From assembly GCA_029210805.1 (NCBI GenBank), contig JARGGA010000002.1:1-41872 (forward strand): a stretch of 41,872 bases of DNA, given 5' to 3'. The notes under the pieces were generated by a model that searched no databases, had not been told where the DNA came from, and was given only the letters and a program-made list of their open reading frames with translations. Of the stretch, positions 3,815-22,847 are shown piece by piece. A program made the translations under genes and the position numbers. The stretch's first letter is position 1; each line of letters starts with the position of its first letter. Source of the stretch: Candidatus Thorarchaeota archaeon (GTDB lineage Archaea; Asgardarchaeota; Thorarchaeia; Thorarchaeales; Thorarchaeaceae).

Positions 3815-3849
3815 GAACACGTGTTCCAATAATGTATTACAAGTATTAC
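3815..3849 (+). promoter_or_regulatory. Composite element upstream of pan: GAACACGTGTTC palindrome plus TGTATTACAAGTATTAC motif
   Basis: Perfect 12-bp palindrome at 3815-3826 and the motif at 3833-3849. The same order and orientation recur upstream of iorA (18350-18393 on the minus strand), including the flanking caatatt. Confidence 0.6.
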
Positions 3850-3955
3850 TTTATTCCAGATCACGCGAATTCACCTTTTGACTAATAACAAGGTAGCTCG
3901 TTGACCACTAAGGATATGCTTAAGTAATTTGAGAAGGATGAAAGGTTGAGGTGTC

Positions 3956-5167
3956 ATGATGCCTGGAAGTACAGATACGAAGAAGAATGGTGAGGTAGAA
4001 GACGAAACTTACAGTCAGAGCTACACAAGACATCTTGAACGACGACTTCGTGCACTTGAAACTGAAAAACAAATACTCCAAGCAGAAAGAGGAAGACTCG
4101 AAAAGGAAACTCAGACTCTTCGTACCGAGCTTGAAAAGCTCAGACAGTCCCCACTAATTACTGCAACTATCTCTGAGATGCTAGAAGATGGTAGGGCGGT
4201 TGTCAAAAGCTCCACAGGTCCCAATTTTGTTGTTCATGTATCTTCTGGTATTTCCAAGGAAAAATTACAACCTGGTATGAGGGTTGCTCTGAATCAACGA
4301 AGCTTTGCCATTACACAAGAACTTCCACCCTCTAGAGACCCTATGATTAGAGCAATGGAAATCGAGGAGGCTCCCTCAATAGCATATTCGGACATTGGAG
4401 GCTTGCAGGATCAGCTCAGGGAGATTCGCGAAACTGTTGAGTTACCTCTTTCAAGTCCGGAGCTTTTCAAGCAGGTTGGCATTGAACCTCCAAAAGGAGT
4501 GTTACTTACTGGTCCTCCAGGTACTGGAAAGACGCTGAGTGCGAGAGCAGTTGCCCATGAAACAAATGCAACCTTCATCCGTGTAATTGGATCGGAACTT
4601 GTTCAGAAGTTTATAGGTGAGGGTGCTCGTCTTGTTCGAGAAATCTTCATGATGGCAAAGGAAAAAGCTCCATCTATTGTCTTTGTAGATGAGCTTGATG
4701 CAGTTGGTTCGCATCGATTAGATATTGCTACATCTGGAGACCGTGAGGTCCAACGAACTCTCATGCAATTACTCTCTGAACTTGATGGATTTGAAACTCG
4801 AGGACAGGTTGCGATTATTGGTGCAACTAATAGACCAGATATTCTCGATCCCGCCCTCCTTAGACCCGGCCGCTTCGATAGAATAATTGAATTCCCCTTC
4901 CCAGATGTTGATAGCCAAAAAGAAATCTTCAAGATTCATACTCGTGGAATGAACATTACCACAGGAATTAATTTCGAGAAACTTCTATCTAGCAACACGA
5001 AGCTTACTGGAGCCGATATCAAAGCGATATGTACTGAAGCAGGAATGTTTGCAATCCGAGATGGGCAGACATGTGTATCGCAGAATCATTTCCGAAAAGC
5101 GATTACCAAGGTCGAAGACAGAGGCAAAGGTAACGACGGTTCTGCTCCTTCTGGTATTTACTGCTAG
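3956..5167 (+). CDS. pan: Proteasome-activating nucleotidase (PAN, AAA+ ATPase)
   Basis: N-terminal coiled coil, an OB segment, Walker A GPPGTGKT, Walker [28 protein letters not shown], and a C-terminal HbYX-like IYC. A GAGGTG Shine-Dalgarno-like box sits at 3948-3953. The start is the ATG at 3956 or 3959. Confidence 0.95.
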
Positions 5168-5171
5168 CCAT

Positions 5172-5189
5172 TGTATTACAATAAATACA
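5172..5189 (+). promoter_or_regulatory. 18-bp motif copy TGTATTACAATAAATACA
   Basis: Lies 4 nt after the pan stop and 14-20 nt before the next start (GTG 5203 / ATG 5209). This position fits a core promoter for a leaderless or near-leaderless mRNA. Confidence 0.6.
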
Positions 5190-5202
5190 AAACATTTGTT
5201 GA

Positions 5203-6051
5203 GTGAGTATGCGGTATAAAGAATATCTCAGGAATGAGTTGGATAAGAATAACCCTGATAATCTTCCACTCCCGAAAGGTTATCATCTCATAGGACATGT
5301 TGCCCTACTAGTGTTGAATTTTGAAGACCGTGATTTTGCTACGAAAGTTGGTAAGTGTACACTTGGATATGATAGTAGAATTCGGTCTGTAGCAATCAGA
5401 ACTGGACCCACTTCAAGTGACATACGGAAACCGGTATACGAATTAATCGCTGGTCAATCAGATACACTTACCACACATATTGAAAACAATGTCAAATTCC
5501 GGATAGATCCTTTGAGGGTAACATTTTCAGGAGGTAATAGAAGGGAAAGGATTTCTCTTCCTCAGTTTGTTCAATCGCATGAATACGTTGTAGATATGTT
5601 TGCATGTGTAGGACAGTTTGGGCTTCATATTGCTAAGACTGCAGGCGCAAAAGTATTGGCTATCGAAATGAACCCTGAAGCTTATTCACTGCTGGAAGAA
5701 AATATCAGAATAAACCATGTTGAAAATAAGATGCAAGCAGTCTTTGGTGACTGTCGCAAGGTACATCCCAATGGTGTTGCAGATCGTATTATTATGGGAT
5801 ACCTTCCGGGTACAATAGACTTCCTTCCTTCAGCTTTGGATACTCTTTCTCAAGAGGGAGGGACGATTCATATCCATGACTCACTTCCTGAGAATGAAAT
5901 TGGGGATTATTGTAATACTATTAATACATTAGCATCGGAATGGGGATTTGCTTCAGTTGTTCTACCAAGAAAGATAAAGCATTACTCGCCAGGAATTTCA
6001 CATTATGTATTTGATGTATCAGTTCTGCCTAATGAAGCGTCTGAAGCATAA
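5203..6051 (+). CDS. Trm5/Taw2 (Met-10+) family SAM-dependent tRNA methyltransferase
   Basis: GYHLIGHVALL, SAM motif VVDMFACVGQFGLHIA and DRIIMGYLP. At about 280 aa it is closer to Taw2/TYW2 than to Trm5b in size. Confidence 0.8.
   Translation: MSMRYKEYLRNELDKNNPDNLPLPKGYHLIGHVALLVLNFEDRDFATKVGKCTLGYDSRIRSVAIRTGPTSSDIRKPVYELIAGQSDTLTTHIENNVKFRIDPLRVTFSGGNRRERISLPQFVQSHEYVVDMFACVGQFGLHIAKTAGAKVLAIEMNPEAYSLLEENIRINHVENKMQAVFGDCRKVHPNGVADRIIMGYLPGTIDFLPSALDTLSQEGGTIHIHDSLPENEIGDYCNTINTLASEWGFASVVLPRKIKHYSPGISHYVFDVSVLPNEASEA
5911..5928 (+). promoter_or_regulatory. Near-perfect motif copy TGTAATACTATTAATACA inside the Trm5/Taw2-like CDS
   Basis: Matches 17 of 18 positions of the copies at 8929 and 12055. 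It points toward nac, whose start is 168 nt downstream, and the true spacer 6052-6095 has no copy. Confidence 0.4.
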
Positions 6052-6095
6052 TCGTTTTATCGTCAATGGAGAGGTAGCAACAAGAGGAATCTTTG

Positions 6096-6479
6096 ATGGG
6101 ATTTAGAGGAATGTCACCCAAACAAATGGCGCGCATGATGAAAAAAATGGGCATATCACAAGATGATCTGAAGGGCGTAAAAGAGGTCATCATTCGTTTT
6201 GAAGATAAGGAATGGGTGATAGAAAATGCTCAGGTTGCCATTGTTAAACAAGCCGGAAGTGAGTCTTATCAGGTTTCAGGTAGTAAAATTGAGAGAGCAT
6301 TGACCACAGGTATGTCAGTTGATAGTAATGTTGAACCAGAGCCCGAGATTGAAATACCAATTGAAGATGCAGCTCTTGTTGCAGGACAGACAGGAGTAGA
6401 TATTGAAACCGCGACTCAGGCCCTAAAGGACACCAAAGGAGACTTGGCTGCCGCGATTCTAAAACTCAGACAACCCTAG
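6096..6479 (+). CDS. nac: Nascent polypeptide-associated complex protein (archaeal NAC, NAC + UBA domains)
   Basis: MGFRGMSPKQMARMMKKMGI, a NAC beta-barrel segment, and a C-terminal UBA-like EDAALVAGQTGVDIETATQALKDTKGDLAAAI. ATG at 6096 (the track begins at the TTG at 6093). Confidence 0.85.
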   Translation: MGFRGMSPKQMARMMKKMGISQDDLKGVKEVIIRFEDKEWVIENAQVAIVKQAGSESYQVSGSKIERALTTGMSVDSNVEPEPEIEIPIEDAALVAGQTGVDIETATQALKDTKGDLAAAILKLRQP

Positions 6480-7123
6480 GAAGATTGTTCCAACTGCATT
6501 CGATCGCGAATAATCTTTAGTCGTATGAAATCTTCTCTTTCGCGTTCTTCCAGAGCAAGTTTCACAAAACGAGCTGTAGCATCCAATCGGGGGATTACTA
6601 CAGTTTCCAAAGCAGATACGCGACGTTTTGTTCGTTCTATCTCCAGAGCCAAACGCTTGACGGTGGATTCAATTTCTGCAAGACGCACTAACGATTTCAA
6701 TGCTTCTCTAAACTTGATACTCATTGTATCAAGTCTTGCACTGGAATCAGGTAGTGAATATGGCAACTCTGGTACATGTTGTTCCACTGAAAGAACAGGA
6801 ACACGGACACCCATCATTGACCGGGTGGCAATGCTAATTTCTGTCTGTACATTACTGGCATATGCAAATTCGATTACTCTAGCAGGTCCCATAATCATTT
6901 TGGCTTGGGTTAAACTTGAGAATGCCTCGGCCAATGCAGATTCTACTGCCTGTCTGGCTTCCTTTATTTCTGCAATGGCATTGAAAAATTCCATAATTAG
7001 TGAATCGCGTTTTTCTTTGAGTAGATTATGACCACGTTCAGCTAGGCGCATCCTATTCTTCAATCGAAGAAGTTCCATTCGGGTTGTCTTAGTACCTGCC
7101 AATACCTTGCTCATTGTGGTCAC
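6476..7123 (-). CDS. atpD: A/V-type ATP synthase subunit D
   Basis: TRMELLRLKNRMRLAERGHNLLKEKRDSL and a long coiled-coil layout typical of AtpD/NtpD. Its stop overlaps the nac stop in the palindrome CTAG (6476-6479). Confidence 0.9.
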   Translation of the reverse strand: MTTMSKVLAGTKTTRMELLRLKNRMRLAERGHNLLKEKRDSLIMEFFNAIAEIKEARQAVESALAEAFSSLTQAKMIMGPARVIEFAYASNVQTEISIATRSMMGVRVPVLSVEQHVPELPYSLPDSSARLDTMSIKFREALKSLVRLAEIESTVKRLALEIERTKRRVSALETVVIPRLDATARFVKLALEEREREDFIRLKIIRDRMQLEQSS

Positions 7124-7198
7124 TTCACTGTTACTTTGAATCAGTCATATGTAGTGAATCACACAGTATATGATTTCCTAAAACTGTTGTGATGGATA

Positions 7199-7477
7199 TT
7201 ATGCTAGGGTGAATGTTAGCGCACTTAATACTACACCAATCAGGCATATGATTAACCACTCACGAACGTATTTCTGTACTAAGTGAGGGCTGTCACTAAT
7301 CTGTCCAGTTGCAATAAAAGTCATTATTGAAATAAATAGAAATGCAAATGGAAGGGAAGCTGTAGTGCCGTCAGTGGGAGCATCAGCAATGAATATGACA
7401 CCAACGAGAAGGCCGAATATCATAAAGCTAAGTATCATCAAAGAGTTCAAAATTCGTTGGATCCTGCTTACGTCCAT
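7199..7477 (-). CDS. Small membrane protein (about 3 TM helices)
   Basis: Three hydrophobic stretches in 92 aa. No recognised family. Confidence 0.5.
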   Translation of the reverse strand: MDVSRIQRILNSLMILSFMIFGLLVGVIFIADAPTDGTTASLPFAFLFISIMTFIATGQISDSPHLVQKYVREWLIICLIGVVLSALTFTLA

Positions 7478-7624
7478 ACTATGATTCTCCTAGTTTGCAG
7501 ATCATACTAGAATGCCTGCCCGTCAAACACACGGCTTTATTCAGTTCAAAAAGGTTGTGTATTGAACTTGGCGCGATTCGTATATTTCTCACACAATCTT
7601 TATCAGGTATATAATTGTACAAAT

Positions 7625-7651
7625 TGTATTACAATAAGTAATTGTGATACA
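7625..7651 (+). promoter_or_regulatory. Motif copy TGTATTACAATAAGTAAT plus the TGTGATACA half-site
   Basis: The 9-mer core is at 7625-7633 and a variant half-site at 7643-7651. A GAGGT box lies at 7654-7658 and the ATG at 7666. Confidence 0.6.
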
Positions 7652-7665
7652 ACGAGGTTGTAGCC

Positions 7666-8640
7666 ATGACGATTGCAATTCATGAGTCCGCGCTCATTCG
7701 ACATTTTAACACACGTAAAGAAACGCTCCGCGCGTGGGAAGAAAATATAGGTGCACGTTTTAGCCCCTTTAGGGGTTTTAAGATGCCTGATTCGCGTCTC
7801 TACTGCGAGCATCCTGATTTTCTTGATTCTATAGTTGATCTAATCATTACTAATGAGAGACATATCTTTCTTAGAGGTCCAGTTGGATCAGGGAAGAGCA
7901 CCTTGATGCTTTTGGCATTGAGAGATTTACCTACCCTTGCAGATCGAAGAGGTAACAAATTCATAACTGGATATGTAGGCATGACAGGACTTTATGAGAA
8001 ACAGATGTCAGCAGCTATTGCTGATTCATTGAGAATCAAATATCGACGTTCTTGGGAATCTAGTCAGATTATTGATGCGGTCGCTCAGGAGAGTGTACGA
8101 AGATATATCGAGGAAAAAAGTCGTACCGCCCTCTTCATTGAGGACGTTGCTGATAACCAAGAAGCTGCGTTCCATAAGCTTCGATATTTAGCTGATTTGC
8201 CAACTGAGGAAATGAAAGATGATTATAGAACGGCACTTGATGAACCAATTGTAACACTAGTCATGAGCGGAACTAAGCTTTATTGGAATGCAATGCTTTC
8301 ATTCCTTCCACAGATAGCTGATAGAACAGAGCCATTGGACGTTCCTGCACTGGGGGATAGCAAAGCAAGGGAATTTATTGGTCGTAGGATTGCGTATGCA
8401 AAAGGAACCATCGATTCTTTCGATTCTGCCAATTACGACGTTTATCCATTTCATGACGACGCGATAACAGTACTTAACACTGCCGCAAGAGGGAACCCTC
8501 GTGACCTTCGAATGTTGGCCAGAGGGTGTCAACAAGTTGCAGCTGAAAATTTCAAACGGGCTGGTAGCCCTGATGTAGACCCAGAGATAGCTCGGCTTGT
8601 ATCAGAAGCGTATGAAACTATTCTCAAGGAGGTCAGATGA
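7666..8640 (+). CDS. AAA+ ATPase of the ExeA/TniB/ORC-like (AAA_22-type) class, with no winged-helix domain
   Basis: Walker A LRGPVGSGKSTL, Walker B-like ALFIEDVAD, and a sensor-2-like ARGNPRDLRMLARGCQQVAA. At 324 aa it ends without a C-terminal DNA-binding domain. Confidence 0.75.
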   Translation: MTIAIHESALIRHFNTRKETLRAWEENIGARFSPFRGFKMPDSRLYCEHPDFLDSIVDLIITNERHIFLRGPVGSGKSTLMLLALRDLPTLADRRGNKFITGYVGMTGLYEKQMSAAIADSLRIKYRRSWESSQIIDAVAQESVRRYIEEKSRTALFIEDVADNQEAAFHKLRYLADLPTEEMKDDYRTALDEPIVTLVMSGTKLYWNAMLSFLPQIADRTEPLDVPALGDSKAREFIGRRIAYAKGTIDSFDSANYDVYPFHDDAITVLNTAARGNPRDLRMLARGCQQVAAENFKRAGSPDVDPEIARLVSEAYETILKEVR

Positions 8641-8918
8641 TCATGAGTGTATTGGGCAAATATAGAAAGGATGAAGAACGACGGGATGATGAAGACAAAA
8701 CAACTGACACTTCACCAAAAATAGATACTGTGCCAGTTGCTGTGCCAAATAAAGAAAGAAAGAGTCCAATTATGTCGTTCAGTGTCACAACAGAACTCAG
8801 ATCCTGCCTGAAAGCTGTTAGAAACGAAAAGGCAATTAACTTGAGTATGTGGGTGGAACGCACATTGAGAAATGCTTTGTCAGAAGAATTTCCGGATATT
8901 GCAGAAGCGCATCTTTAA
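8637..8918 (+). CDS. Ribbon-helix-helix (CopG/Arc-like) DNA-binding protein with a charged disordered N-terminus
   Basis: The C-terminal MSFSVTTELRSCLKAVRNEKAINLSMWVERTLRNAL fits a beta-strand/helix/helix RHH pattern. Its start overlaps the ATPase stop in ATGA (8637-8640). Confidence 0.6.
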   Translation: MIMSVLGKYRKDEERRDDEDKTTDTSPKIDTVPVAVPNKERKSPIMSFSVTTELRSCLKAVRNEKAINLSMWVERTLRNALSEEFPDIAEAHL

Positions 8919-8928
8919 AGAGTCATCT

Positions 8929-8946
8929 TGTAATACAATTAATACA
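8929..8946 (+). promoter_or_regulatory. 18-bp motif copy TGTAATACAATTAATACA at a convergent 3' junction
   Basis: Identical 18-mer to 12055-12072. It lies 10 nt after the stop of the RHH gene and 2 nt before the stop of acdA. Confidence 0.6.
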
Positions 8947-8948
8947 AG

Positions 8949-10331
8949 CTAGATTCTTCTGTTGAGCATAGTTGCATATTCTGCGGCTTTTGTCATGCAT
9001 AGAGCTGCAAGAGCCGGATCATCGTAGCAGGGTATTCTATTCATTTCCAGCAAATCCTTCCCGGGTTTTCCAACATCACCTGCAAGCCATACACCTACTA
9101 CTGGTTTATCGGTTGCCGTTATTCTAACACCTTCCAACGTCCCCGCTGCATGTTCTGCTTGAGTCATCCCCGCGAAGGTAGGAACGGCGCATACTACTAG
9201 CAACATATCCACATTGGAGTCTTTCAGAAGAAGTTCAGTCGCGACACGATACTCCCGTCTGCCTCCGCTGGCCAAAACATCGATTGGATTGTTTATGGAT
9301 GCCATTGGTGATAGGACTTGACGTAGATCGTTATATGTTTCTTTTTCGAATTGGGGGATATTGAGACCTAGTTCTGAAGCAGCATCTGTAGCAAGTACTC
9401 CTGCTCCACCTGTATTACTAATAATACCAATATTACATCCTTTAGGTATTGGTTGATAATCAAATATCTTGCAAATTTCAAGCAGAGAATCAAGAGTAGG
9501 TGCAGACACGCATCCTGCTTGTCGCACCATGCCATCGAATACTTCAGTTGATCCGGCAAGTGATCCTGTGTGACTTTGAGTGGCCCGACCACCAATCTCA
9601 CTACGACCACCTTTTAGAACAACGACTGGCTTTTTACGAGACGCACTTTGAAGCGAGTCAAAGAATCCTCTACCATTATCAACTCCTTCTACATAGACAG
9701 CAATTGCTTTAGTTCTCTGATCATCACGGAAGTAATCAAGAACTTCTACAAAACCAACATCAGCAGCATTACCTACACTTGCGAATTTACTAACACCTAT
9801 TCTCTTCGCACGTGTGGTGTAGATGATCATTCCTCCAAGAGCTCCGCTTTGAGAAAGTAGAGCAATATTTCCACGTTCAGGCATCATAGTAAATGTGGCA
9901 TTGAAAAGACGGCTATTAGAAACTCCAACACAGTTAGGTCCAATGATACGAACTCCAGCCTGATTAGCTGCATTCACGAGAGATTCTTCAAGCTTTGCAC
10001 CTTCAGAATCTACCTCACTGAATCCACCAGAAATGACAACTGCATGGCTGGCTCCAGCCCTTTTCACCTCAGCCATTAACCCTGGGCAATATTTGGCAGC
10101 CACAGCTATGACCACCAAGTCAACTGGATTAGGTAAATCACTCAGACTTGGGTATGCCTTCACACCAAGGACATATTCGCTTGATCTGCTTATTGGATAG
10201 ATATCGATTTCCGATGTAAGAAGATTCATCAGAATTGAATTACCAAGTTTTCGATAGTCTGATGATGCACCAACAAGAGCGACTGACTTTGGATTAAAGA
10301 ACAAATCAATGGATGATTCTTGTCTGTTCAT
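8949..10331 (-). CDS. acdA: ADP-forming acetyl-CoA synthetase alpha subunit / CoA-binding succinyl-CoA-synthetase-like protein
   Basis: KSVALVGAS, IIGPNCVG, ALLSQSGALG and the phosphohistidine loop ATQSHTGSLAG. The start is trimmed to the ATG at 10331 (MNRQESS); the track extension to 10403 runs through the motif at 10394. Confidence 0.85.
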   Translation of the reverse strand: MNRQESSIDLFFNPKSVALVGASSDYRKLGNSILMNLLTSEIDIYPISRSSEYVLGVKAYPSLSDLPNPVDLVVIAVAAKYCPGLMAEVKRAGASHAVVISGGFSEVDSEGAKLEESLVNAANQAGVRIIGPNCVGVSNSRLFNATFTMMPERGNIALLSQSGALGGMIIYTTRAKRIGVSKFASVGNAADVGFVEVLDYFRDDQRTKAIAVYVEGVDNGRGFFDSLQSASRKKPVVVLKGGRSEIGGRATQSHTGSLAGSTEVFDGMVRQAGCVSAPTLDSLLEICKIFDYQPIPKGCNIGIISNTGGAGVLATDAASELGLNIPQFEKETYNDLRQVLSPMASINNPIDVLASGGRREYRVATELLLKDSNVDMLLVVCAVPTFAGMTQAEHAAGTLEGVRITATDKPVVGVWLAGDVGKPGKDLLEMNRIPCYDDPALAALCMTKAAEYATMLNRRI

Positions 10332-10393
10332 AGGGTGAAACAAAAACGCATATGATTTATGTCTGCCGTGTTGTACAATTTCTTCCTGATAAT

Positions 10394-10411
10394 TGTAATA
10401 CAAGTATTAAT
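10394..10411 (+). promoter_or_regulatory. Motif copy TGTAATACAAGTATTAAT
   Basis: Exact 9-mer core at 10394-10402, in the 75-nt spacer between the stop of the 10407-11660 gene and the acdA start. Confidence 0.55.
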
Positions 10412-11660
10412 AGGATTTCCAGTTCTCTCTGTAAAACCGCCGCAATGCTGAAGAATTCTTACAGTCTGATGATAGAGTATTCTCTACTATGGCACGAGTT
10501 TCGGGACATCTATATTTTATATTCTTTAGTGATACAAGTGCGGATTCGCGAACCTTTGCAATTCGTGTTGTACAAATGGTATTGATTAGTACGTTTACAA
10601 TTGAAGAGTGATAGTAATTACCAAGTGCTCCAATAGCAGGAGTCACTATCCGAGGATTTTTTTCGTAAGTCATTTCATCCAGTATAATTGCTGATTCAAG
10701 CATGCGGATTGATATATGATCTCTGATTGATGATAGTAACGCACGATACGATTGACTGGATTCGGTAGCTTTGTATTCATCAATCGCACTACGTAGCAAA
10801 TGGTTCAATGTAGGCACTGAGTGTTTGCTGCCAAGTGTACGTAGACCTTCTGTGTTATGATTGATGATGAAGTCAAGTAAGTCTGCATAATGAGGGCTCA
10901 ATGAAGGTTTATCGAATGGATTATTACTCGTTATATCCTTCTTGGACCTCTGCAGCTTATCCTTAATTGTTGGTGATACTTGTATTACTGATAATACCAA
11001 TTCGTACTGTTCCGAGGATATTGTTCGACCAAGAACTCCCAGATTGGCCAGGGCTATACGACCAAGTTCGGTATACCAGAGATCTTCGATTAAAAGTGAA
11101 TTGCGTTGTCGTACCACATCGACTAGAGTAATTATCTGGGTTTGAGCCATTTCTATTGCTATTGCTAAGTTGGTTGGAATTCTATGACCAGAGTTGTATA
11201 CATCGAAAAACAATGTATCTCCATTTGCAACTTGATTTTCAGCAGATTCTGTAACTGTATCCAGAAGGAGTCGTATTGCATCAACACTTGAATCAGCAGA
11301 TATTGTGCCCAAAAGAAGTTCTTCTGTAGGTTCGGGAATCGGTTCTAATCCTGAACAACCAAGAAGTTCGAATACGACCTCTCTGAATTTCAAGGGTTCC
11401 ACCATAACTCGAGGATGAGCATATCCTATAGGAACGGAATATTGTGTTCGGCTGGCACTGATTAGATATTCAATTACTGTTGACCATCCGTCAGTTAATT
11501 CCACATTGGTAGTTATATCACTCAAGTCTTTGATTCGCCTATCACCTATTGCATTAGCAATTTCTTGAATTACAGTTTCTTCTTCTATTTCCTTGATTTT
11601 CTGTTTGCTTGCTTTCATTATTCGATGTAGTGGGTTATCATCACCATTCAATACTATCAC
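10407..11660 (-). CDS. Hypothetical all-alpha (HEAT/ARM-like repeat) protein
   Basis: Long helical ORF with a C-terminal part (PAIGALGNYY...RIAKVRESALVSLKNI) that resembles HEAT repeats. The start is uncertain: GTG at 11660 or ATG at 11618. Confidence 0.55.
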   Translation of the reverse strand: MIVLNGDDNPLHRIMKASKQKIKEIEEETVIQEIANAIGDRRIKDLSDITTNVELTDGWSTVIEYLISASRTQYSVPIGYAHPRVMVEPLKFREVVFELLGCSGLEPIPEPTEELLLGTISADSSVDAIRLLLDTVTESAENQVANGDTLFFDVYNSGHRIPTNLAIAIEMAQTQIITLVDVVRQRNSLLIEDLWYTELGRIALANLGVLGRTISSEQYELVLSVIQVSPTIKDKLQRSKKDITSNNPFDKPSLSPHYADLLDFIINHNTEGLRTLGSKHSVPTLNHLLRSAIDEYKATESSQSYRALLSSIRDHISIRMLESAIILDEMTYEKNPRIVTPAIGALGNYYHSSIVNVLINTICTTRIAKVRESALVSLKNIKYRCPETRAIVENTLSSDCKNSSALRRFYRENWKSY

Positions 11661-11702
11661 AAACTTGCTGTACAGCCAGTTACAGGAAATCGAATAAGAT
11701 TT

Positions 11703-11741
11703 TGTAATTGTATACAGATATTACTTGTATTACAATGTATA
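11703..11741. promoter_or_regulatory. Motif cluster TGTAATTGTATACA...ATATTACTTGTATTACAATGTATAAA
   Basis: Exact 9-mer core at 11726-11734 plus flanking half-sites, just upstream of the 10407-11660 gene. Read on the plus strand it also points into the long spacer. Confidence 0.55.
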
Positions 11742-12029
11742 AACCACAGAAAAAGGGGGAAAAAAGCCGGTTCTAGGATTAGAACTATGTACAATTGTGA
11801 TTGATTATAGTATGAGTGTGTCGTATCAATAGTAAGCGATTGGCTGTGGGATAGGCTTCACATACAACCACAATCGATCACTGTTGCTATCTCTATCTCC
11901 TCAAATGCAATAAACTAGTAGATACAATGGTGATGCAAAGCGGTTGGAAACCAATCCGTGTTGACCGCGATTCGTGTTTGAATGCGACACATTCGTGCTG
12001 CTTTTTAGTTCCTTTTTCTGGAAGCTAGT

Positions 12030-12053
12030 TTCACAATAATGCACTATTCACAA
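12030..12053 (+). promoter_or_regulatory. Bipartite TTCACAATAATG-N4-ATTCACAA element
   Basis: The same bipartite element recurs at 22783-22807 and, in variant form, at 22408-22430. Confidence 0.5.
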
Positions 12054-12054
12054 A

Positions 12055-12072
12055 TGTAATACAATTAATACA
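12055..12072 (+). promoter_or_regulatory. 18-bp motif copy TGTAATACAATTAATACA
   Basis: Identical 18-mer to 8929-8946. It ends 1 nt before the stop codon (12074-12076) of the minus-strand gene. Confidence 0.6.
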
Positions 12073-12073
12073 T

Positions 12074-12631
12074 TTATTCAGATTCGGAATTTGTTCGTTT
12101 TTTTGAGATCTCTGATTTTAGAATCAAGGGAGAAGCCAGTTCATTTAGAGCTTCGTTAATCGATCGCTCTGCCGTTCTATAGCTCTCGATCTCCTCATTG
12201 CTTAGCTCCTCTCTGCCTGCAAGAACCTCTCTAATTCTACGATAGTCACCTATCTTCGATGCAATTTCTTCAAAAGGTCTGAAAACAGCGAAATCGAATA
12301 GGTCAAGATATGCCAGTAGCAGCATAGTATACATACATCGAGTTACATTCCGTCGCGATTGACGTAGAGTTCGATTAAATGAACCTCGAGACACGCCTCT
12401 TGTTCTGCTGGTAGATTTGCTACGAATTGTAGCCTTGTCCTCGTAGGGAACGTGATTACCAAGTTGATCTTCTACCACCAGGTCAATCAGTAGTGTTTCC
12501 AACTGTGCTTTTGTGAGTAATGATTGCTCTAGTAGAATTTTCATAATCGGTTCGTTCATGACTCTGCGTGCCCGTCTTCCTATACTTTTCATATCTCGTG
12601 GGTGCTCTGATTCTTGTAAATCCTCATTCAT
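12074..12631 (-). CDS. Putative DNA-binding protein with a sigma-70 region 4 / DUF134-like helix-turn-helix
   Basis: LTKAQLETLLIDL...RGVSRGSFNRTLRQSRRNV resembles the LT.EE.E..RL...GVSR.T..R.L..AR.K HTH pattern. The rest of the protein is helical. Confidence 0.5.
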   Translation of the reverse strand: MNEDLQESEHPRDMKSIGRRARRVMNEPIMKILLEQSLLTKAQLETLLIDLVVEDQLGNHVPYEDKATIRSKSTSRTRGVSRGSFNRTLRQSRRNVTRCMYTMLLLAYLDLFDFAVFRPFEEIASKIGDYRRIREVLAGREELSNEEIESYRTAERSINEALNELASPLILKSEISKKRTNSESE

Positions 12632-12771
12632 CTATTGTTAACCTCTATAATAGTAATAATGCCCAGAGAGCAACTAGAACGGCTTTTAACACACGTCTTA
12701 CTGGGGTGTCTGGATGGATACACATTTGTATACGAATGAAACAGACGCTTATAGATATAACTTAACGAAAT

Positions 12772-12789
12772 TGTGATACTTGTAGTACA
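12772..12789 (-). promoter_or_regulatory. Degenerate motif copy (plus strand TGTGATACTTGTAGTACA)
   Basis: Two half-sites with the family spacing, 141 nt upstream of the 12631 start and oriented toward it. Confidence 0.4.
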
Positions 12790-12794
12790 TTTCT

Positions 12795-13208
12795 CTAGCT
12801 TGGGAGCGTCCATTCAGCTTCCGGAGATACTTCAACAAATCCAAGAATGAGGTTTCCTCGAATCTCATCAAACTTGTAGACACCGAAAACATATCGTTCT
12901 CGTCCAAGATCCCATTCGAATCTTCCCCTGGCGAGAGTGTGTTGGAAAACATTCCGGCATTGTTTTCGTACTGATGCAAAGAGATTCTTGAATCTCCTAC
13001 GTTGCGAAGGACGAATACCCCAACGTTCGAGAATGAATCTGTTAGCAAGACTATTACTTGAAATCAGTATTGCTCTCTTTTTTCGATTGCTGGCACGTGA
13101 AGAGTCTCTCAGTACATTACGTAAGCAATCGGGTAAATTTGCTAGAATGGAAGGAGTGGTTTCAGGTTCACGAATGAGATAACCCTTGTTTTCTGAAGAC
13201 GGCTGCAA
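12795..13208 (-). CDS. Hypothetical basic protein (137 aa, TTG start)
   Basis: Longest of three overlapping ORFs at this locus. Arg-rich N-half and a beta-rich C-half (RYVFGVYKFDEIRGNLILGFVEV). No family recognised. Confidence 0.4.
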   Translation of the reverse strand: MQPSSENKGYLIREPETTPSILANLPDCLRNVLRDSSRASNRKKRAILISSNSLANRFILERWGIRPSQRRRFKNLFASVRKQCRNVFQHTLARGRFEWDLGRERYVFGVYKFDEIRGNLILGFVEVSPEAEWTLPS

Positions 13209-13260
13209 CTTTAATCATACTTTGATACTGCTGATACCTTAAGAGCACCTACAAATACTT

Positions 13261-13286
13261 TGTAATACACGTACTATATGTGATAC
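13261..13286 (+). promoter_or_regulatory. Motif copy TGTAATACA...TGTGATAC
   Basis: Exact 9-mer at 13261-13269 plus a half-site at 13279-13286, in the divergent spacer upstream of hypF. Confidence 0.55.
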
Positions 13287-13358
13287 GCCGAGATTATGTT
13301 GTCATTTCATTTGATTTAATACCAGCTAGTATTCCGATGCGGTTAGAGGTTCCACTAA

Positions 13359-15725
13359 TTGCAAAAGAGAGCTTCAATTCATGTGAAGGGTATTGTACAA
13401 GGAGTCGGATTCAGGCCTTTTGTATACAGAAAAGCAAAGGAACTCTCTTTGTTAGGTTACGTACTGAACTTGGGAGATGCTGGAGTAAGAATCGTAGTTG
13501 AAGGCGAAGAGAGTCATATTGAAATGTTAATCAATGAAATTCACACTGATCCCCCATCTATATCCAGGATAGATACATTCACACTAGATTGGCAGGAAAC
13601 GCAAGGAGATTTCCAAGAATTCTTAATAACAAAATCATCTACTAAGAGGAGCGAGAATTCGGAACCAGTTATACCTCCCGATATCGCAATGTGTGATGAT
13701 TGCTTACCGGACCTAATGAATCCCAATTCGTGCTGGTATCTCTACCCCTTCACATCATGTGCTGCATGTGGACCACGTTTCTCAACAATCACTGATCTTC
13801 CATATGATAGGCCTAACACTACAATGGCCGATTTTCCTCTATGTGATACGTGTAATACAGGTTATACGAATCCTTTAGATCGCAGATATCACGCCCAAAC
13901 CACTGCGTGTGAAAACTGTGGACCAATCTACAGACTATATGATGCTCACAGAAACGAATTAATTTCCTCGGATACTGTTCAAGAGATTTCCAAGTTGCTT
14001 GAGAAAGGATCAGTAGTAGCTATGCAAGGCATAGCTGGAACCCATCTTGTAACAATCACTTCTGACCCTAGACCTATACGTAAACTCAGAAAGAGAAAGA
14101 AGAGATCTCAACGGCCTTTTGCAATAATGGTACGGTCCTTAGAAGTTGCAAAGGAGTTGTTTGATATTACTCCTGCAGAACTTGCAATGATGAACACTTG
14201 GAGAAGGCCTATTGTACTTGTAAAAAAGAAGAAACTCGATTGTACCAATTTGAGTGTATTAGGTGTAATACCGAAAGAGTCATTGGAAGAAATAGCACCA
14301 GGTTTGGATTCATTGGGTGTCATGCTTCCTTATGCGCCAATACATCATATGCTCTTTCAGTGTCTTGATGAGGCCTCACTGGTAATGACTAGTGCAAATC
14401 CTTCTGGTGTACCCATGTATATTACTTCAGAGAAGATACTATCCTCATTGAACGATATCGCAGATCACTTTCTCCTTCATAATAGAAGAATCCATCAACG
14501 CGCAGACGATTCAGTTGTGAAATTTACTACTGATGACAATCCTGTTTTTATTAGAAGAGCAAGGGGCTATGTACCAGAACCAATACCAACAAATGGGGTT
14601 TCAAAATCAGTCAGACTCCTTGCGGTGGGTCCAGAAGAAAAGTCAACTGTTTCTATTCTGAAATCAGGGATGATTTATCCGTCGCAACATATTGGTGACA
14701 CAAACAACATAGAGAGTATTGAATTTCTTGAGAATGCATACCGTCACTTAATGCGTCTTGTTGGACTCAACGATATTGATGGTATAGCAAGTGACTTACA
14801 TCCTGAATTTCTGAGTACACTTCATGCGGAAACTATTTCCCAAGAAAAGCAGATTCCACTCTTTCGTATTCAGCATCATCATGCTCACCTTGCTTCGATG
14901 CTAGTTGATCATAAAGTGCCACTTGATACAAGTATTGTTTGTATTACAACTGATGGTTTTGGTTATGGACAAGACAAAACTGCATGGGGGGGTGAAGTTT
15001 TAGCTGGGAATGCAAAAGAGTACTTGAACTTAGGAGGATTAGAATCTTATTTACTTCCCGGAGGTGATTTGACTGCTGTCTATGCGGCCAGATCATTAGT
15101 GGGTATGTTGCATAATGATACTGATGAGAAGACCATTCTCAGAATTACCGAAGGTATGCCTGTATCGCACAACGAAGTCATCTCATCAAGTACGCTCAAT
15201 ATGATAAGAGGTGCAATCGATCAGGAGGTCAATGTTGTAAGAAGTTCAAGTGCTGGAAGATTCTTGGATGCATCTGCGGCATTGTTAGGGATTTGTAATG
15301 AGAATACGTATGATGGCGAATGCCCTATGAAACTTGAAGCTGTTGCCAAGAAAGGAACATTGAGTTTGGCAACTAAGATTTTTAGTGATGGAAAGAAACA
15401 GATTCTTGACACATCTGGTATGTTGCATGACTTGGCAAACCTTCACAAGGCAGGTGCACGTAGATCCGAACTGGCCTATGCTGCCCAGTGGTATTTAGGT
15501 GATGCACTGGCACATATTGCAATTAGTATTGCTGAAGAGAGGGACGTAAAGCGGATTGGGTTCTCGGGAGGTGTTGCTCTGAACACTATTATCTCAAAAG
15601 CCATAGTAGAGAGAGTTGAAGTTAATGGAATGAAGCCACTACTGCATAGGACCGTTCCGCCTGGAGACGGAGGCATATCAATCGGTCAGATTGCGGTTGG
15701 AACGGCTTCGATCACTGATATATAA
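13359..15725 (+). CDS. hypF: [NiFe]-hydrogenase maturation carbamoyltransferase HypF
   Basis: Acylphosphatase-like VQGVGFRPFVYR, two zinc-finger pairs (CDDC...CAACGPRF and CDTC...CENCGP), a YrdC-like middle region, and a Kae1-like C-terminus with GGVALN and PPGDGGISIGQ. TTG start with a GAGGT box 9 nt upstream. Confidence 0.93.
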   Translation: MQKRASIHVKGIVQGVGFRPFVYRKAKELSLLGYVLNLGDAGVRIVVEGEESHIEMLINEIHTDPPSISRIDTFTLDWQETQGDFQEFLITKSSTKRSENSEPVIPPDIAMCDDCLPDLMNPNSCWYLYPFTSCAACGPRFSTITDLPYDRPNTTMADFPLCDTCNTGYTNPLDRRYHAQTTACENCGPIYRLYDAHRNELISSDTVQEISKLLEKGSVVAMQGIAGTHLVTITSDPRPIRKLRKRKKRSQRPFAIMVRSLEVAKELFDITPAELAMMNTWRRPIVLVKKKKLDCTNLSVLGVIPKESLEEIAPGLDSLGVMLPYAPIHHMLFQCLDEASLVMTSANPSGVPMYITSEKILSSLNDIADHFLLHNRRIHQRADDSVVKFTTDDNPVFIRRARGYVPEPIPTNGVSKSVRLLAVGPEEKSTVSILKSGMIYPSQHIGDTNNIESIEFLENAYRHLMRLVGLNDIDGIASDLHPEFLSTLHAETISQEKQIPLFRIQHHHAHLASMLVDHKVPLDTSIVCITTDGFGYGQDKTAWGGEVLAGNAKEYLNLGGLESYLLPGGDLTAVYAARSLVGMLHNDTDEKTILRITEGMPVSHNEVISSSTLNMIRGAIDQEVNVVRSSSAGRFLDASAALLGICNENTYDGECPMKLEAVAKKGTLSLATKIFSDGKKQILDTSGMLHDLANLHKAGARRSELAYAAQWYLGDALAHIAISIAEERDVKRIGFSGGVALNTIISKAIVERVEVNGMKPLLHRTVPPGDGGISIGQIAVGTASITDI

Positions 15726-15726
15726 T

Positions 15727-15744
15727 TGTATTAACTGTAATACA
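15727..15744 (-). promoter_or_regulatory. 18-bp motif copy (plus strand TGTATTAACTGTAATACA) at a convergent 3' junction
   Basis: Begins 1 nt after the hypF stop and ends 4 nt before the iorB stop. Confidence 0.6.
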
Positions 15745-15748
15745 TTTA

Positions 15749-16375
15749 CTATTCCTTCATAAACTGGGTAATCATTGCAAAACCAGCTTCAAAGGCACTC
15801 ACATTGATCTCCTCAAATCTGCTTGGAAATGCTTCTCGAACAACCTGTATAGCGGATTCCTTGCGAATAGGCGTGATTTTACTTCCGATTATAGCTCCGA
15901 ACATTACAATATTCATGGATCTACTACTACCAGCTTCTTTTGCAACCTTCATAGCATCGAATTCATGTATGGAGTTAGTAAATTTCCTGATAGCATTTCT
16001 AATCTCATCTTCCGATGGATATTCTGCTTTGCCCATTGATACGGCTACAGGATACTGTACATGTGAGTTCATAATGGCGATACCATCTTTTCTGATGAGG
16101 TGTATCTCTCTGAGAGTTTCAACTGGTTCGAATCCTATAACTAAATGAGCTGTACCTGAATCCACAATGGGACCTTTTGCTTTCTCGCCAATCCGTACAG
16201 TGCATACTACATGGCCACCTCGTTGTGCCATACCATGAATTTCCCCAACACGAACATTGTGTGAATCAAGCAAAGCAGCTTTAGCCAAAATCTCTGCAAG
16301 AGTTAGAACTCCTTGTCCTCCTACTCCAGCAATTGCAATGTTAATGACATCCGTATTATTTGTAATACCAACCAT
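15749..16375 (-). CDS. iorB: Indolepyruvate:ferredoxin oxidoreductase beta subunit
   Basis: IAGVGGQGVLT and EIHGMAQRGG, about 200 aa, placed immediately after iorA. Confidence 0.9.
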   Translation of the reverse strand: MVGITNNTDVINIAIAGVGGQGVLTLAEILAKAALLDSHNVRVGEIHGMAQRGGHVVCTVRIGEKAKGPIVDSGTAHLVIGFEPVETLREIHLIRKDGIAIMNSHVQYPVAVSMGKAEYPSEDEIRNAIRKFTNSIHEFDAMKVAKEAGSSRSMNIVMFGAIIGSKITPIRKESAIQVVREAFPSRFEEINVSAFEAGFAMITQFMKE

Positions 16376-18268
16376 TTACTTCTCCTCCTGTTTGATTGCA
16401 CCTTGTGGACAGACGGAAACACACGTTCCACAGAAGTTACAGAGTGTTTCGTCTATTACAGCTTGTTCAGTTTCAGTGTCTTGATACATTGCAGGACAAG
16501 ACAATCGATTAAGACAACGTTTGCAGGAGTTACATACTTCGGTATCAACATAGTACTTTGGAGGGTATTCACCGCTTTTTCGCCGATCAGCGGCTGTAAG
16601 GAGAGCACATGGATCCCTTGATACAAGAACTGCAGGAGATTTATTCTCGCGAGTCCACTTGACCATCTCACGTACTTCCTTAACAAGTCCGGCCATAGAT
16701 TCGAAGGTGGTGATAGTCTTTACATACTTGATACCTAGTCCCTTGGAGACCTCTTCGATATCGAGTGGCGGAACTTCCTCTCGCATACCAGTGATCCCAG
16801 TTCCAGGATGAGGTTGATGGCCAGTCATGGCTGTTGTTCGATTATCAAGAACAACTAGACTTACTGGGTGTTTATTGTAAACGGCATTTACTAAGCCAGG
16901 GAGTGCGGAAGCAAAGAATGTACTATCCCCAACCGATGCCACAATATCTTGACCTGTTACCTGGGCAAGACCACAAGCAGTTGTAATTGATGACCCCATG
17001 TCAAAGAGAATGTCTGCTGTTTCCAGAGGGGGGGATATACTAAGAGTGTAGCATCCAATATCTGAAGGATAAATTGCCTTGCCTCTGGTTGCGGTACGAA
17101 TAGCAAAATATGATGCCCGGTGAGGACAGCCTGCGCATAGTAATGGGGGCCGAGGAGGCATCTCCGGGATTTGTTCAGATTGTTTGTCAATATCCTTCCA
17201 GTTAATACGTGTATTACGATTACTAATCTTGCCTAATGATTCTATTACGATTCGGGGGCTATATTCGCCCACTCGGGAGAAGTACCCTTGTTCTTTTCCA
17301 AGGATTTCTACACTAACTTCATTTAGTTGAGCAAGTCGTCTTGCGTGTGTTTCCAGGAATGGTTCCAGTTCTTCAACAACTACAACACGTTTGTGACGTT
17401 TAAGAAATTCAACCATGCTCTTTTCGGGAACGGGGTGAGTAATTCCAAGTTTGTAAATCTCGGTTTCTAGTTCTAAATGATCAAGTGCCTCAACTACGTA
17501 GTTGTAAGCCACTCCACTAGTAAGTATTCCGAGGTCACCATTGCCTTCAAAGAAATTGAGTGGACTGTTCTCAGCTATTTCTTTTGCTTTCTCAATCTTT
17601 GCTAGTAACTTAGGGTGCATCTTACGAGCAACCGAAGGGATAGGAACAAGTCGAAATGGGTCTTTCTCAAACTCGACAGTTTTCGGTCGTTCCTTGATAA
17701 TATCTAATACAACAGGTGCACGGGTGTGATTTACACGAGTTGTTGTTCTTAGTAGAACAGGAAGTTCTAGTTTTTCCGAGAGTTCAAAGGCATCATGAAC
17801 CATATCCTTTGCCTCAGCAGGATCTGCAGGTTCTACCATTGGCATGTTACCCATAAGTGCATAGTAACGACTATCGTTCTCATTCTGTGAGCTCCACATA
17901 CTCGGATCATCTGCAACCACAATGACCATGCCTGCACGAACTCCTATGTAGGCCAAAGAAAAGAATGGATCAGCTGCAACATTCAATCCAGGACCTTTAC
18001 ATATCATCATGGATCTTACACCAGCAACTGCCGCAGCTCCTGATACTTCAAGGGCTACTTTTTCATTAGTGCTGAATTCAAAGTAAAAGTTAGGAATGTG
18101 AGGTGCCATGAATGTTAGATTGTTTCCAATCTCACTACTCGGGGTGCCAGGATACAGTGCTACAAGTCGAACACCAGCCTCTAACACTCCTCGAGCTATT
18201 GCCTCATTAGCTAGAAGAAGCACTTTCTTCCCAGGAGTGTTTTCAAGTAGATCCTTGGGTTTGGTCAT
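16376..18268 (-). CDS. iorA: Indolepyruvate:ferredoxin oxidoreductase alpha subunit
   Basis: GNEAIARG, YPGTPSSE, a TPP-binding GDSTFFASALPGL, and a C-terminal 2x[4Fe-4S] region (CNSCKRC...CP and CNFCGTCVSVCP). The start is trimmed to the ATG at 18268, with GGAGG 5 nt upstream. The track extension to 18418 runs through the regulatory motifs. Confidence 0.92.
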   Translation of the reverse strand: MTKPKDLLENTPGKKVLLLANEAIARGVLEAGVRLVALYPGTPSSEIGNNLTFMAPHIPNFYFEFSTNEKVALEVSGAAAVAGVRSMMICKGPGLNVAADPFFSLAYIGVRAGMVIVVADDPSMWSSQNENDSRYYALMGNMPMVEPADPAEAKDMVHDAFELSEKLELPVLLRTTTRVNHTRAPVVLDIIKERPKTVEFEKDPFRLVPIPSVARKMHPKLLAKIEKAKEIAENSPLNFFEGNGDLGILTSGVAYNYVVEALDHLELETEIYKLGITHPVPEKSMVEFLKRHKRVVVVEELEPFLETHARRLAQLNEVSVEILGKEQGYFSRVGEYSPRIVIESLGKISNRNTRINWKDIDKQSEQIPEMPPRPPLLCAGCPHRASYFAIRTATRGKAIYPSDIGCYTLSISPPLETADILFDMGSSITTACGLAQVTGQDIVASVGDSTFFASALPGLVNAVYNKHPVSLVVLDNRTTAMTGHQPHPGTGITGMREEVPPLDIEEVSKGLGIKYVKTITTFESMAGLVKEVREMVKWTRENKSPAVLVSRDPCALLTAADRRKSGEYPPKYYVDTEVCNSCKRCLNRLSCPAMYQDTETEQAVIDETLCNFCGTCVSVCPQGAIKQEEK

Positions 18269-18349
18269 TTGGGGGTCCTCCGTTATCCCGTCTTGGACAG
18301 ACTGCCCGGAACTATTACAGTGTATCAATATTGTGGTAATATACATTGT

Positions 18350-18393
18350 TGTATTAATTGTAATACAAGGAAATATGTTGGAACACGTGTTCC
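18350..18393 (-). promoter_or_regulatory. Composite element upstream of iorA: 18-bp motif plus the perfect 14-bp palindrome GGAACACGTGTTCC
   Basis: Motif at 18350-18367 (plus strand TGTATTAATTGTAATACA) and palindrome at 18380-18393. Further half-sites lie at 18311-18349. The reverse complement aligns with 3805-3849 upstream of pan. Confidence 0.65.
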
Positions 18394-18415
18394 AGTTAAT
18401 ATTGCCCAGCCAATA

Positions 18416-18439
18416 CACCCCTCTATTTCCACTGGAGAA
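18416..18439 (-). other. ORB-like origin recognition box with G-string (ORB-a)
   Basis: The reverse complement reads TTCTCCAGTGGAAATAGAGGGGTG. It matches the archaeal ORB core (TCCAGTGGAAA) and the downstream GGGG element. Confidence 0.6.
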
Positions 18440-18557
18440 TGAAAAATGGAGAGATTTGAGGCGGGTATTATAATAATAATGAAAAATACAGATGAATACA
18501 GACCCTTAATTACATATTTATACTTTTGTATTTTTGATCTGTGTGAATCTTAATTAT
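18440..18557. other. AT-rich core (candidate DNA unwinding element) between inverted ORB-like boxes
   Basis: A 118-bp stretch visibly richer in A/T than its flanks (ataataataatgaaaaata..., atatttatacttttgtatttttga...). No credible ORF. Confidence 0.5.
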
Positions 18558-18579
18558 TTCGAGTGGAAACAAGGGGGTT
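18557..18579 (+). other. ORB-like origin recognition box with G-string (ORB-b)
   Basis: Reads TTTCGAGTGGAAACAAGGGGGTT. It is inverted relative to ORB-a, and both G-strings are distal to the AT-rich core. Confidence 0.6.
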
Positions 18580-18590
18580 GCAATGGTCTT

Positions 18591-18604
18591 GGAACACGTG
18601 GTCG
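18591..18604. promoter_or_regulatory. Degenerate copy of the GGAACACGTGTTCC palindrome (GGAACACGTGGTCG)
   Basis: Mirrors the perfect copy at 18380-18393 on the other side of the ORB pair. Confidence 0.5.
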
Positions 18605-18613
18605 CATTTTCCA

Positions 18614-18904: not shown

Positions 18905-18922
18905 CTTCAAACCCCTATGACT

Positions 18923-18958
18923 AGAACACATGTTCTGAATTTTATTATGTGTAATACA
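18923..18958 (+). promoter_or_regulatory. Composite element in a divergent spacer: AGAACACATGTTCT plus TGTAATACA
   Basis: AGAACA-N2-TGTTCT at 18923-18936, 19 nt from the 18904 start. The 9-mer core lies at 18950-18958, 78 nt upstream of the 19036 start. Confidence 0.55.
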
Positions 18959-20340: not shown

Positions 20341-20352
20341 GTGAATCGAAAC

Positions 20353-22822: not shown

Positions 22823-22847
22823 CCTGTTAATTCGTTTTCATCTAGAA

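Follow-up and report, generated by a model that had tools for sequence, protein, structure and literature searches.

Small DNA-binding proteins of partition cassettes such as ParG and ParR combine an N-terminal region that interacts with a nucleoside triphosphatase (NTPase) with a ribbon-helix-helix (RHH) type motif, and repeats are found upstream of the operon. On tandem repeats, RHH proteins place one dimer per unit, and neighboring dimers cooperate. Tandem 7-bp palindromes at a fixed short period are the pattern of such dimer arrays, as in MetJ, omega, and ParR, and fit poorly with helix-turn-helix (HTH) dimers. To our knowledge, chromosome organization and segregation have not been worked out in Asgard archaea, and we know of no cultured Thorarchaeota. 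Elsewhere in Archaea, SegB has an N-terminal SegA-binding region and an RHH motif, its segS sites include three repeats upstream of the operon and further chromosomal sites, and the protein is confined to Sulfolobales and a few euryarchaeal transfers (PMC12139799). Here, we analyze a stretch of 41,872 nucleotides from a Thorarchaeota (Asgard) archaeon (contig JARGGA010000002.1, positions 1 to 41,872, hereafter the window), in which a gene encoding an ATPase of the AAA+ superfamily (ATPases associated with diverse cellular activities) precedes one encoding a 93-aa protein with a likely RHH fold, amid arrays of a short palindrome. The pair forms a single-copy operon on the chromosome, confined to Thorarchaeia and their close relatives among Asgard archaea, and nearly all homologs of the two proteins are from metagenome-assembled genomes of Candidatus Thorarchaeota.

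A scan of species-representative genomes returned 76 loci, and the ATPase locus is single-copy and found in all those retrieved from Thorarchaeota. The gene of the 93-aa protein directly follows that of the ATPase in 73 of them, the other 3 stopping at a contig edge, and in most loci the genes overlap or are directly contiguous. On the complete Thorarchaeota chromosome CP070658.1 (2.58 Mb), the pair is located at ~1.797 Mb. In the window, they share an ATGA at 8637-8640, within gtcagATGAtcatg, and the two open reading frames (ORFs) are exactly as described in an earlier note made from the sequence alone. The pair belongs to a block, PAN-Trm5-NAC-AtpD-TM92-AAA-RHH-ACS-u417-u185-u137-HypF-PORg-IOR, that is found in ~70 species (ACS stands for acetyl-CoA synthetase). 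Since the entire block is syntenic, adjacency within Thorarchaeota is by itself weak proof that the two genes form a unit. We found them together in other contexts as well. They are still adjacent in a rearranged lineage (L072), where the ATPase is 65% and its partner 36% identical, and in a sister lineage (L077/L078) at 43% identity, where the partner retains the KYRKDE head and the EFPDIA tail. In Odinarchaeia (L079), an ExeA-like protein that is 20% identical is followed by a 110-aa ORF of beta-alpha-alpha-like type. Hence, the pair is kept as a unit beyond plain synteny, in 73 of 73 informative loci and in these more distant lineages. The ATPase is also the best conserved of the 14 syntenic proteins, with a median identity of 83% across 75 species loci (81% for PAN and 79% for AtpD), and assembled contigs of a metatranscriptome match its gene at 99% identity or more.

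This neighborhood bears on the idea that the locus is a mobile element, a toxin-antitoxin system, or a defense cassette, e.g., a TniB-like protein or an RHH antitoxin paired with an AAA+ effector. The ATPase profile does resemble TnsC/TniB, and RHH proteins are common as antitoxins. The pair is nevertheless single-copy and lies in an identical housekeeping neighborhood in ~70 species, its ATPase is conserved at the level given above, and no transposase or TniQ is encoded nearby in the window. Searches of the pair with PADLOC gave a single match, to a P-loop, at an E value of 0.027, and those with PHROG gave no meaningful match. We regard this explanation as effectively refuted; the possibility raised in the earlier note, that the ATPase is a transposition TniB within a mobile element, does not hold.

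The second component of the locus is the motif. In the window, there are 14 copies of the 9-mer TGTAWTACA, where 0.47 would be expected by chance; 100 shuffles never gave as many. Its core unit is the 7-bp palindrome GTAWTAC. An 11-15-fold enrichment of this unit is seen in L077 and in all the Thorarchaeota lineages examined; L072 shows none. The units are phased at exactly 9 bp: among 1080 exact sites, a unit with at most one mismatch is found at +9 in 425 cases and at +18 in 131, with almost none at other offsets. The resulting arrays consist of 2 or 3 units and only seldom of 4, with a maximum of 6 in L077. They show no orientation bias relative to the upstream gene, and many of them lie 0-30 nt past a stop codon, including in convergent gaps.

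The arrays are restricted to one chromosomal domain (Table 1), and the last 18 kb of the window contain only one exact GTAWTAC site. Across ~75 loci, the density is ~0.5-1.9 sites per kb at -3 to +11 kb of the ATPase start, except in the ATPase gene itself, and 0.16-0.24 per kb at -9 to -4 kb. The difference is largest between genes, with 3.58 sites per kb inside the domain against 0.32 in the left flank (~11-fold), and it is also seen in coding sequences (0.64 against 0.20). Relative to the operon, the domain begins at about -4 kb and reaches at least +11 kb (+16 kb in the window). The motif domain suggested by the earlier note is therefore real and kept across species. A genome-wide repeat comparable to HIP1 or to uptake sequences is rejected, since the density is ~11-fold lower outside the domain. 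We also rejected a general promoter motif of Thorarchaeota, i.e., a B recognition element with its TATA box, because the arrays occupy convergent gaps and the inside of genes, have no consistent TATA, and are found in a single domain. A reading of the motif as a restriction site was considered and rejected.

The arrays are under selection at the DNA level even within genes. HypF carries the 9-mer in 48 of 55 loci; in the window, its coding sequence includes, besides the array listed in Table 1, arrays at 14255-14272 and 14922-14948. The information content of its third-codon positions is 1.28 bits within the array and 0.61 bits outside it. The synonymous sites are conserved in the motif cores (1.1-1.8 bits) and not in the spacers (0.6-0.8 bits). 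This constraint thus follows the motif. The arrays are functional elements of the sequence and do not merely result from coding.

Some further observations concern the arrangement of the arrays. Up to 13.3 kb of the window, the perfect unit is the left one in nearly all arrays; from 13.8 kb on, it is the right one, in a mirror-like manner. We did not build on this polarity, since the switch at ~13.5 kb is only partly reproduced in other genomes. The 413-nt gap between u417 and u185 (11661-12073) has inverted arrays at its edges (11709-11734 and 12055-12080) separated by a spacer of 320 nt, and an internal inverted repeat (11747-11767 and 12000-12020); it is not AT-rich and has no match in Rfam. 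A second palindrome, GAACACGTGTTC, is found at positions 3815, 18381, 18592, 18924, and 23099 of the window, often beside a GTAWTAC array. It is conserved upstream of IOR/POR genes across Thorarchaeota, at +10 to +11 kb in ~55 related loci, and is probably a separate transcription-factor site. A scan of metagenomes for a 17-mer of the motif returned mostly chance matches from unrelated metagenomes. Only one contig of 1.3 kb looked related (Ga0172379_10213020, L108): it has two inverted 4-unit GTAWTAC arrays with a 9-bp period, ~50 nt apart, at 296-400.

The pair and the motif co-occur, and the best-conserved motif site of the syntenic block is the array upstream of the operon. This array lies in the gap between the ATPase gene and that of TM92, a predicted membrane protein of 92 aa that looks hydrophobic by eye and has no family match, encoded at 7199-7477 (-). 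The gap has the 9-mer in 68 of 71 loci and GTAWTAC in all 71, the highest values of all gaps. In the window, TGTATTACA begins at 7625, 41 nt upstream of the ATG. The family consensus of the array is TGTATTACA agAAgTACt TGTGATAC, with 26 consecutive positions conserved in 65 array-anchored loci. In these loci, the distance between the array and the ATG varies from 29 to 64 nt, while that between the array and a TATA-like element is fixed. Because of this fixed spacing, the array is predicted to begin at about the transcription start. This is the classical site for an archaeal repressor that blocks the recruitment of the polymerase, and the 93-aa protein would, if it is the reader of the array, repress its own operon.

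On the other side of the pair, the gap between the RHH and ACS genes has the 9-mer in 29 of 71 loci and GTAWTAC in 61. The copy in the window, TGTAATACAATTAATACA, starts at 8929, 10 nt beyond the stop codon of the 93-aa gene. This agrees with the earlier note, which had placed motif copies on both sides of the operon; the upstream 18-mer ends at 7642 and is 23 nt from the ATG, where 24 had been given. The sister lineage L077 has eight arrays within 3 kb of the pair. One of them, with 4 units, separates the two genes; right after the RHH gene, an AT-rich non-coding stretch of ~1.1 kb is occupied by arrays of 6, 3, 4, 4, 1, and 3 units. In the Odin locus, pairs of GAATAY at exactly 10 bp, all in one orientation, are found in all three gaps around a gene trio (at 612/622, 767/777, 2211/2221, and 3011/3021), with 14 forward copies where 5.8 are expected.

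Table 1. Main features of the window around the operon and its arrays (positions refer to the 41,872-nt stretch)
Feature	Position	Strand	Remarks
Array domain	3833..23610		21 arrays; 23 of the 25 exact GTAWTAC sites of the window
Array starts (1)	3833, 5172, 5911, 7625, 8929, 9411, 10394, 10972, 11717, 12055, 13261		
Array starts (2)	13842, 14255, 14922, 15727, 16352, 17201, 18350, 18941, 21756, 23593		
TATA-like promoter element of the operon (putative)	7596..7604	+	'ttttata' consensus at -29..-23 from the array start, 65 loci
Three-unit array TGTATTACA / ATAAGTAAT / TGTGATACA	7625..7651	+	Putative operator at the predicted transcription start
Shine-Dalgarno-like GAGGT	7654..7658	+	Upstream of the ATG in most loci; putative function
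AAA+ ATPase gene	7666..8640	+	324 aa; ExeA/AAA_22 branch, ORC/Cdc6- and TnsC-like; without DNA-binding domain
Small partner gene	8637..8918	+	93 aa; MSLLGKYRKEEE N-terminal peptide, acidic disordered linker, C-terminal RHH-like domain (~43-82), EFPDIA tail
Two-unit array TGTAATACA ATTAATACA	8929..8946		Occupies the gap between the convergent RHH and acetyl-CoA synthetase genes
u185 gene	12074..12631	-	185 aa; sigma-r4/Tfx/DUF134-like HTH signature GVSRGAFNRTLxQARRNV; near the pair in four lineages
Three-unit array within the coding sequence of HypF	13842..13868	+	Covers the zinc-finger CxxC codons

The position of many arrays just after stop codons, including in convergent gaps, raises the question of whether they act on transcripts or at transcription boundaries, e.g., as signals in untranslated regions (UTRs), insulators, or roadblock terminators, and are near the pair by coincidence. 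The arrays of the operon itself would then be in its 5' and 3' UTRs. However, palindromic units with an exact 9-bp phasing are the signature of dimeric binders of double-stranded DNA, and the arrays have no bias in orientation relative to the upstream gene. Furthermore, the putative operator keeps its position relative to the TATA-like element and not to the start codon, and arrays are limited to one domain instead of being a feature of gene ends in general. We thus find this explanation very improbable.

The 93-aa protein is the first candidate to bind the arrays. It consists of an invariant N-terminal peptide (S2, L4, K6, Y7, and R8), a variable acidic linker, and 45 conserved C-terminal residues. 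The AlphaFold2 (AF2) model, built with 65 sequences, has an extended segment followed by helices at 50-63, 67-82, and 84-90, with a predicted local distance difference test (pLDDT) of 76-87, and the residues of the putative strand, P44-I45-M46-S47-F48-S49, are mostly invariant. Several independent matches to hidden Markov models (HMMs), all of them below threshold, point to RHH families: RHH_1 (0.008), YlcI/YnfO (0.013), Arc-like (0.042), HicB-like (0.055), and CcdA (0.06). Foldseek searches with the model gave StnY and the Arc repressor as best matches, with E values above 4. The alignment of the profile of the protein to single sequences of Arc and CopG with hhalign was not significant and was uninformative. 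An ungapped alignment of the C-terminal segment to Arc made by eye is a lead and not a test. We consider the RHH fold likely but unproven. The earlier note had called it a clean RHH fold; the strand-helix-helix-like model and the concordant weak HMM matches go in this direction, but none reaches its threshold and the wording was overstated. It was otherwise a correct first description of the locus, since the ORFs, the ATGA overlap, and the motif copies on both sides were all found.

The other protein of the pair has the elements that define the AAA+ superfamily: a Walker A (GPVGSGKST, residues 71-79), a Walker B, an arginine finger in box VII (R220), a sensor 2 (R279, in GNPRDLRML), and a C-terminal helical lid, whose helices are placed at 231-323 by the secondary structure of the model. 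The Walker motifs and both arginines are invariant or nearly so. The acidic pair of the Walker B (E159-D160, encoded at ~8140-8145) reads 'ED' where 'DE' is the usual order. The 'ED' order is common to Thorarchaeota, the sister lineage, and P0254, while more distant relatives retain 'DE', and it may point to a slow, switch-like ATPase. The chain stops ~45 residues past sensor 2, which leaves no space for a winged helix. The description of the protein in the earlier note, with a Cdc6/ExeA-like sensor 2 and without a C-terminal DNA-binding domain, is thus accurate.

The family of this ATPase is tiny. An exhaustive HMMER search of 1.84 billion representative proteins retrieved 27 proteins at E ≤ 1e-3, the distant members being AAA_22/ExeA proteins, including one true ExeA with a peptidoglycan-binding domain (PG_binding_1). 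Pfam searches gave matches to AAA_22, AAA_16, and NB-ARC, all below threshold: that to AAA_22 scores 22.5 bits, below the gathering threshold of 27, which leaves the ATPase of the window under the family cut-off. Some orthologs carry a precomputed match to PF13401. The JGI annotation already labels the protein COG3267-like, and its assignment to an ExeA-type family is therefore not new. Among solved structures, the family profile matches best archaeal Cdc6 (2qby_A, 9e-8), human ORC1 (3e-7), and VchTnsC (1.5e-6). This likeness to Orc1/Cdc6 is confined to the AAA+ core, and the match at the family level failed (TIGR02928, E of 0.08, 11.8 bits against a cut-off of 181). The AF2 model of the ATPase is poor (pLDDT of 57, shallow alignment), and we take as a hint, for this reason, that Foldseek ranks A. 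pernix ORC2 first with it (3e-5). Domain searches of the ATPase found no transmembrane (TM) segment and no peptidoglycan-binding domain. The locus also lacks a type II secretion context, the neighbors being PAN, Trm5, NAC, AtpD, and ACS. Judging from its sequence, the ATPase is a divergent ExeA-type AAA+ protein of the ORC/Cdc6-TnsC neighborhood that lacks a DNA-binding domain.

Taken together, we propose that the pair and the arrays form an autoregulated module in which the 93-aa protein is the adaptor between sites and ATPase, and which builds on this chromosomal domain a nucleoprotein structure resembling a partition complex or an organizing center. We give this reading a probability of about 45%. 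The 93-aa protein would dimerize through its RHH-type domain, with one dimer on each palindromic GTAWTAC unit, and adjacent dimers on the arrays, with their exact 9-bp phase, would bind cooperatively. The complex formed at the operator would also be nucleated by the remaining arrays, which are concentrated in the ~20 kb surrounding the operon. The conserved basic N-terminal peptide, carried on its acidic flexible linker, may recruit or regulate the ATPase. Like its ORC/Cdc6 and TnsC relatives, the ATPase would assemble on the adjacent DNA in an ATP-dependent manner, and the two proteins together would build the structure that organizes the domain.

Several points weigh against this reading. 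No observation ties the arrays to the 93-aa protein rather than to u185 or another factor, and searches of Pfam and of the sequences in the PDB gave no significant RHH assignment for the 93-aa protein. The activity of the ATPase is possibly atypical in view of its 'ED' Walker B, and its structural model has the low confidence mentioned above. We know of no AAA+ ATPase that acts in partition, and the named ExeA relatives work in the assembly of secretins and not on DNA. The right boundary of the array domain is visible in this window only. Since the domain coincides with the conserved syntenic block, the conservation of the sites and synteny are confounded. Finally, the rearranged lineage L072 keeps the pair and has almost no arrays in the 21 kb examined.

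This last observation would also fit a 93-aa protein that is an ordinary autoregulator and represses its own promoter only. The ATPase would then act on proteins or on an envelope complex, possibly with TM92, and the other arrays would be read by another protein, e.g., u185. Such a role would be in line with that of the named relatives, which are assembly ATPases of the ExeA/GspA type (as in the JGI label), and with TM92, which is transcribed divergently from the operon and syntenic in 72 loci. It would also give a place to u185, a second DNA-binding candidate that accompanies the pair: homologs are encoded directly upstream of the Odin pair (L079, 29-604, E of 4e-25), past the array cluster of the sister lineage (L077, 3368-3871, E of 2e-15), and near the pair of L072 (6971-7441). 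The matches of u185 to DUF134 are weak, and its signature suggests an HTH protein of the sigma-r4/Tfx-like type. It is another candidate for reading the arrays, and may even be their actual reader, or else may be a third subunit of the module. However, two divergent lineages have their arrays concentrated near the pair, a third has tandem units on either side of it, and a 7-bp palindrome every 9 bp suits a beta-ribbon dimer better than an HTH dimer. An envelope role also fits poorly with an ATPase that has neither a TM segment nor a peptidoglycan-binding domain, and no homolog of TM92 was detected beside the pair in L072, L077, or L079. A small ORF after the pair in L072 was considered as such a homolog, but the homology could not be confirmed. 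Overall, we think that plain autoregulation is possible and somewhat unlikely.

The kinship of the ATPase with initiators suggests another role for the proposed complex. An ORC/Cdc6-like AAA+ protein without winged helix could be guided by the RHH protein (and perhaps the HTH protein) to iteron-like arrays that mark a lineage-specific origin, or a region controlling an origin. The nearest solved relatives are indeed Cdc6 and ORC1, in agreement with the Foldseek result, and the sister lineage has its ~1.1 kb of AT-rich non-coding DNA full of arrays right beside the genes. In the window, there are the inverted arrays around the 320-nt spacer (11709-12080). Yet, we found neither an Orc1/Cdc6 gene nor an AT-rich unwinding region in the window, and the GC skew is uninformative over its 42 kb. 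The TIGR02928 match is far under its cut-off, and a spread over ~20 kb that includes coding DNA is unlike known archaeal origins. We consider such a split initiator improbable. For the same reasons, i.e., the missing Orc1/Cdc6 gene and unwinding region, the window provides no evidence for the origin-like locus that the earlier note had placed ~10 kb from the pair. In its most specific form, the proposal would have the AAA+ protein and its RHH adaptor, perhaps with the Tfx-like HTH protein, form a centromere-like or origin-organizing complex on the ~20-kb array domain, or alternatively an ORC-like initiator that delegates the recognition of DNA to a separate protein. The former would be a new class of machinery for chromosome partition or organization in the archaeal lineage closest to eukaryotes; we hold this form of the proposal to be doubtful.

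Beyond the array domain, the window encodes a HerA/FtsK-like ATPase of 1282 aa (28585-32433, -), a tRNA-Glu (34551-34628), and a secretion or pilus ATPase of the T2SSE type (35033-36778, -) that adjoins a TFIIB-like protein (36779-37819, -).

The locus is a concrete candidate for further work. Its ATPase is lineage-specific and equals the proteasomal ATPase in conservation, its partner is a small putative DNA-binding protein, and its cis sites are in exact phase; these three components can be expressed and assayed in vitro without culturing the organism. Whatever its cellular role, the array domain is an unusual genomic feature, as it is kept in ~70 species and subject to selection at synonymous sites. 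If the proposed link between RHH protein, arrays, and ATPase is true, the logic of an NTPase with an RHH protein and repeats would extend to the ORC/ExeA branch of AAA+ proteins. This would be the first DNA-linked function for archaeal ExeA-like proteins. The earlier note knew of no described system with this pairing, and our literature searches led to the same result: we found nothing relevant on the AAA+/RHH pairing, on the motif, or on ExeA in Asgard archaea.

The comparison with known systems shows what is shared and what is particular to this locus. SegAB, ParF-ParG, and ParM-ParR resemble it in having a gene for an NTPase followed, in one operon, by the gene of a small site-specific DNA-binding protein, the binding being putative here. 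As in partition cassettes, arrays of repeats are found next to the operon (upstream in 68-71 of 71 loci, downstream in 29-61 of 71, and as a dense cluster in the sister lineage). The NTPase of these cassettes is of the ParA/Walker type, actin-like (ParM), or tubulin-like (TubZ), whereas here it is an AAA+ protein of the ExeA/ORC branch, and neither protein has sequence homology to SegA or SegB. The presence of ~20 arrays over ~20 kb, including coding DNA, is a feature of this locus. With ExeA/GspA (COG3267, AAA_22), the ATPase has in common an N-terminal '...PF' motif, a core of the AAA_22 type, and a G-x-P-R sensor 2. It differs from them by the absence of TM and peptidoglycan-binding domains and of a type II secretion context, by the 'ED' Walker B, and by its RHH-like partner. 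Orc1/Cdc6 and TnsC/TniB are its best relatives of solved structure by profile, and the low-confidence model predicts two helices between beta2 and beta3 that resemble the initiator-specific motif. TnsC-TniQ/TnsD follow a similar logic, in which the ATPase works with a separate protein that provides the specificity for DNA. Unlike these systems, the locus has no winged helix, transposase, or TniQ, and is fixed and syntenic. Finally, the arrays share with the met-boxes of MetJ, the heptads of omega, and the iterons of ParR a short head-to-tail unit in exact phase. The 9-bp period and the GTAWTAC unit are new here, as is the distribution of the arrays, which are found within genes and over a 20-kb domain instead of at one operator.

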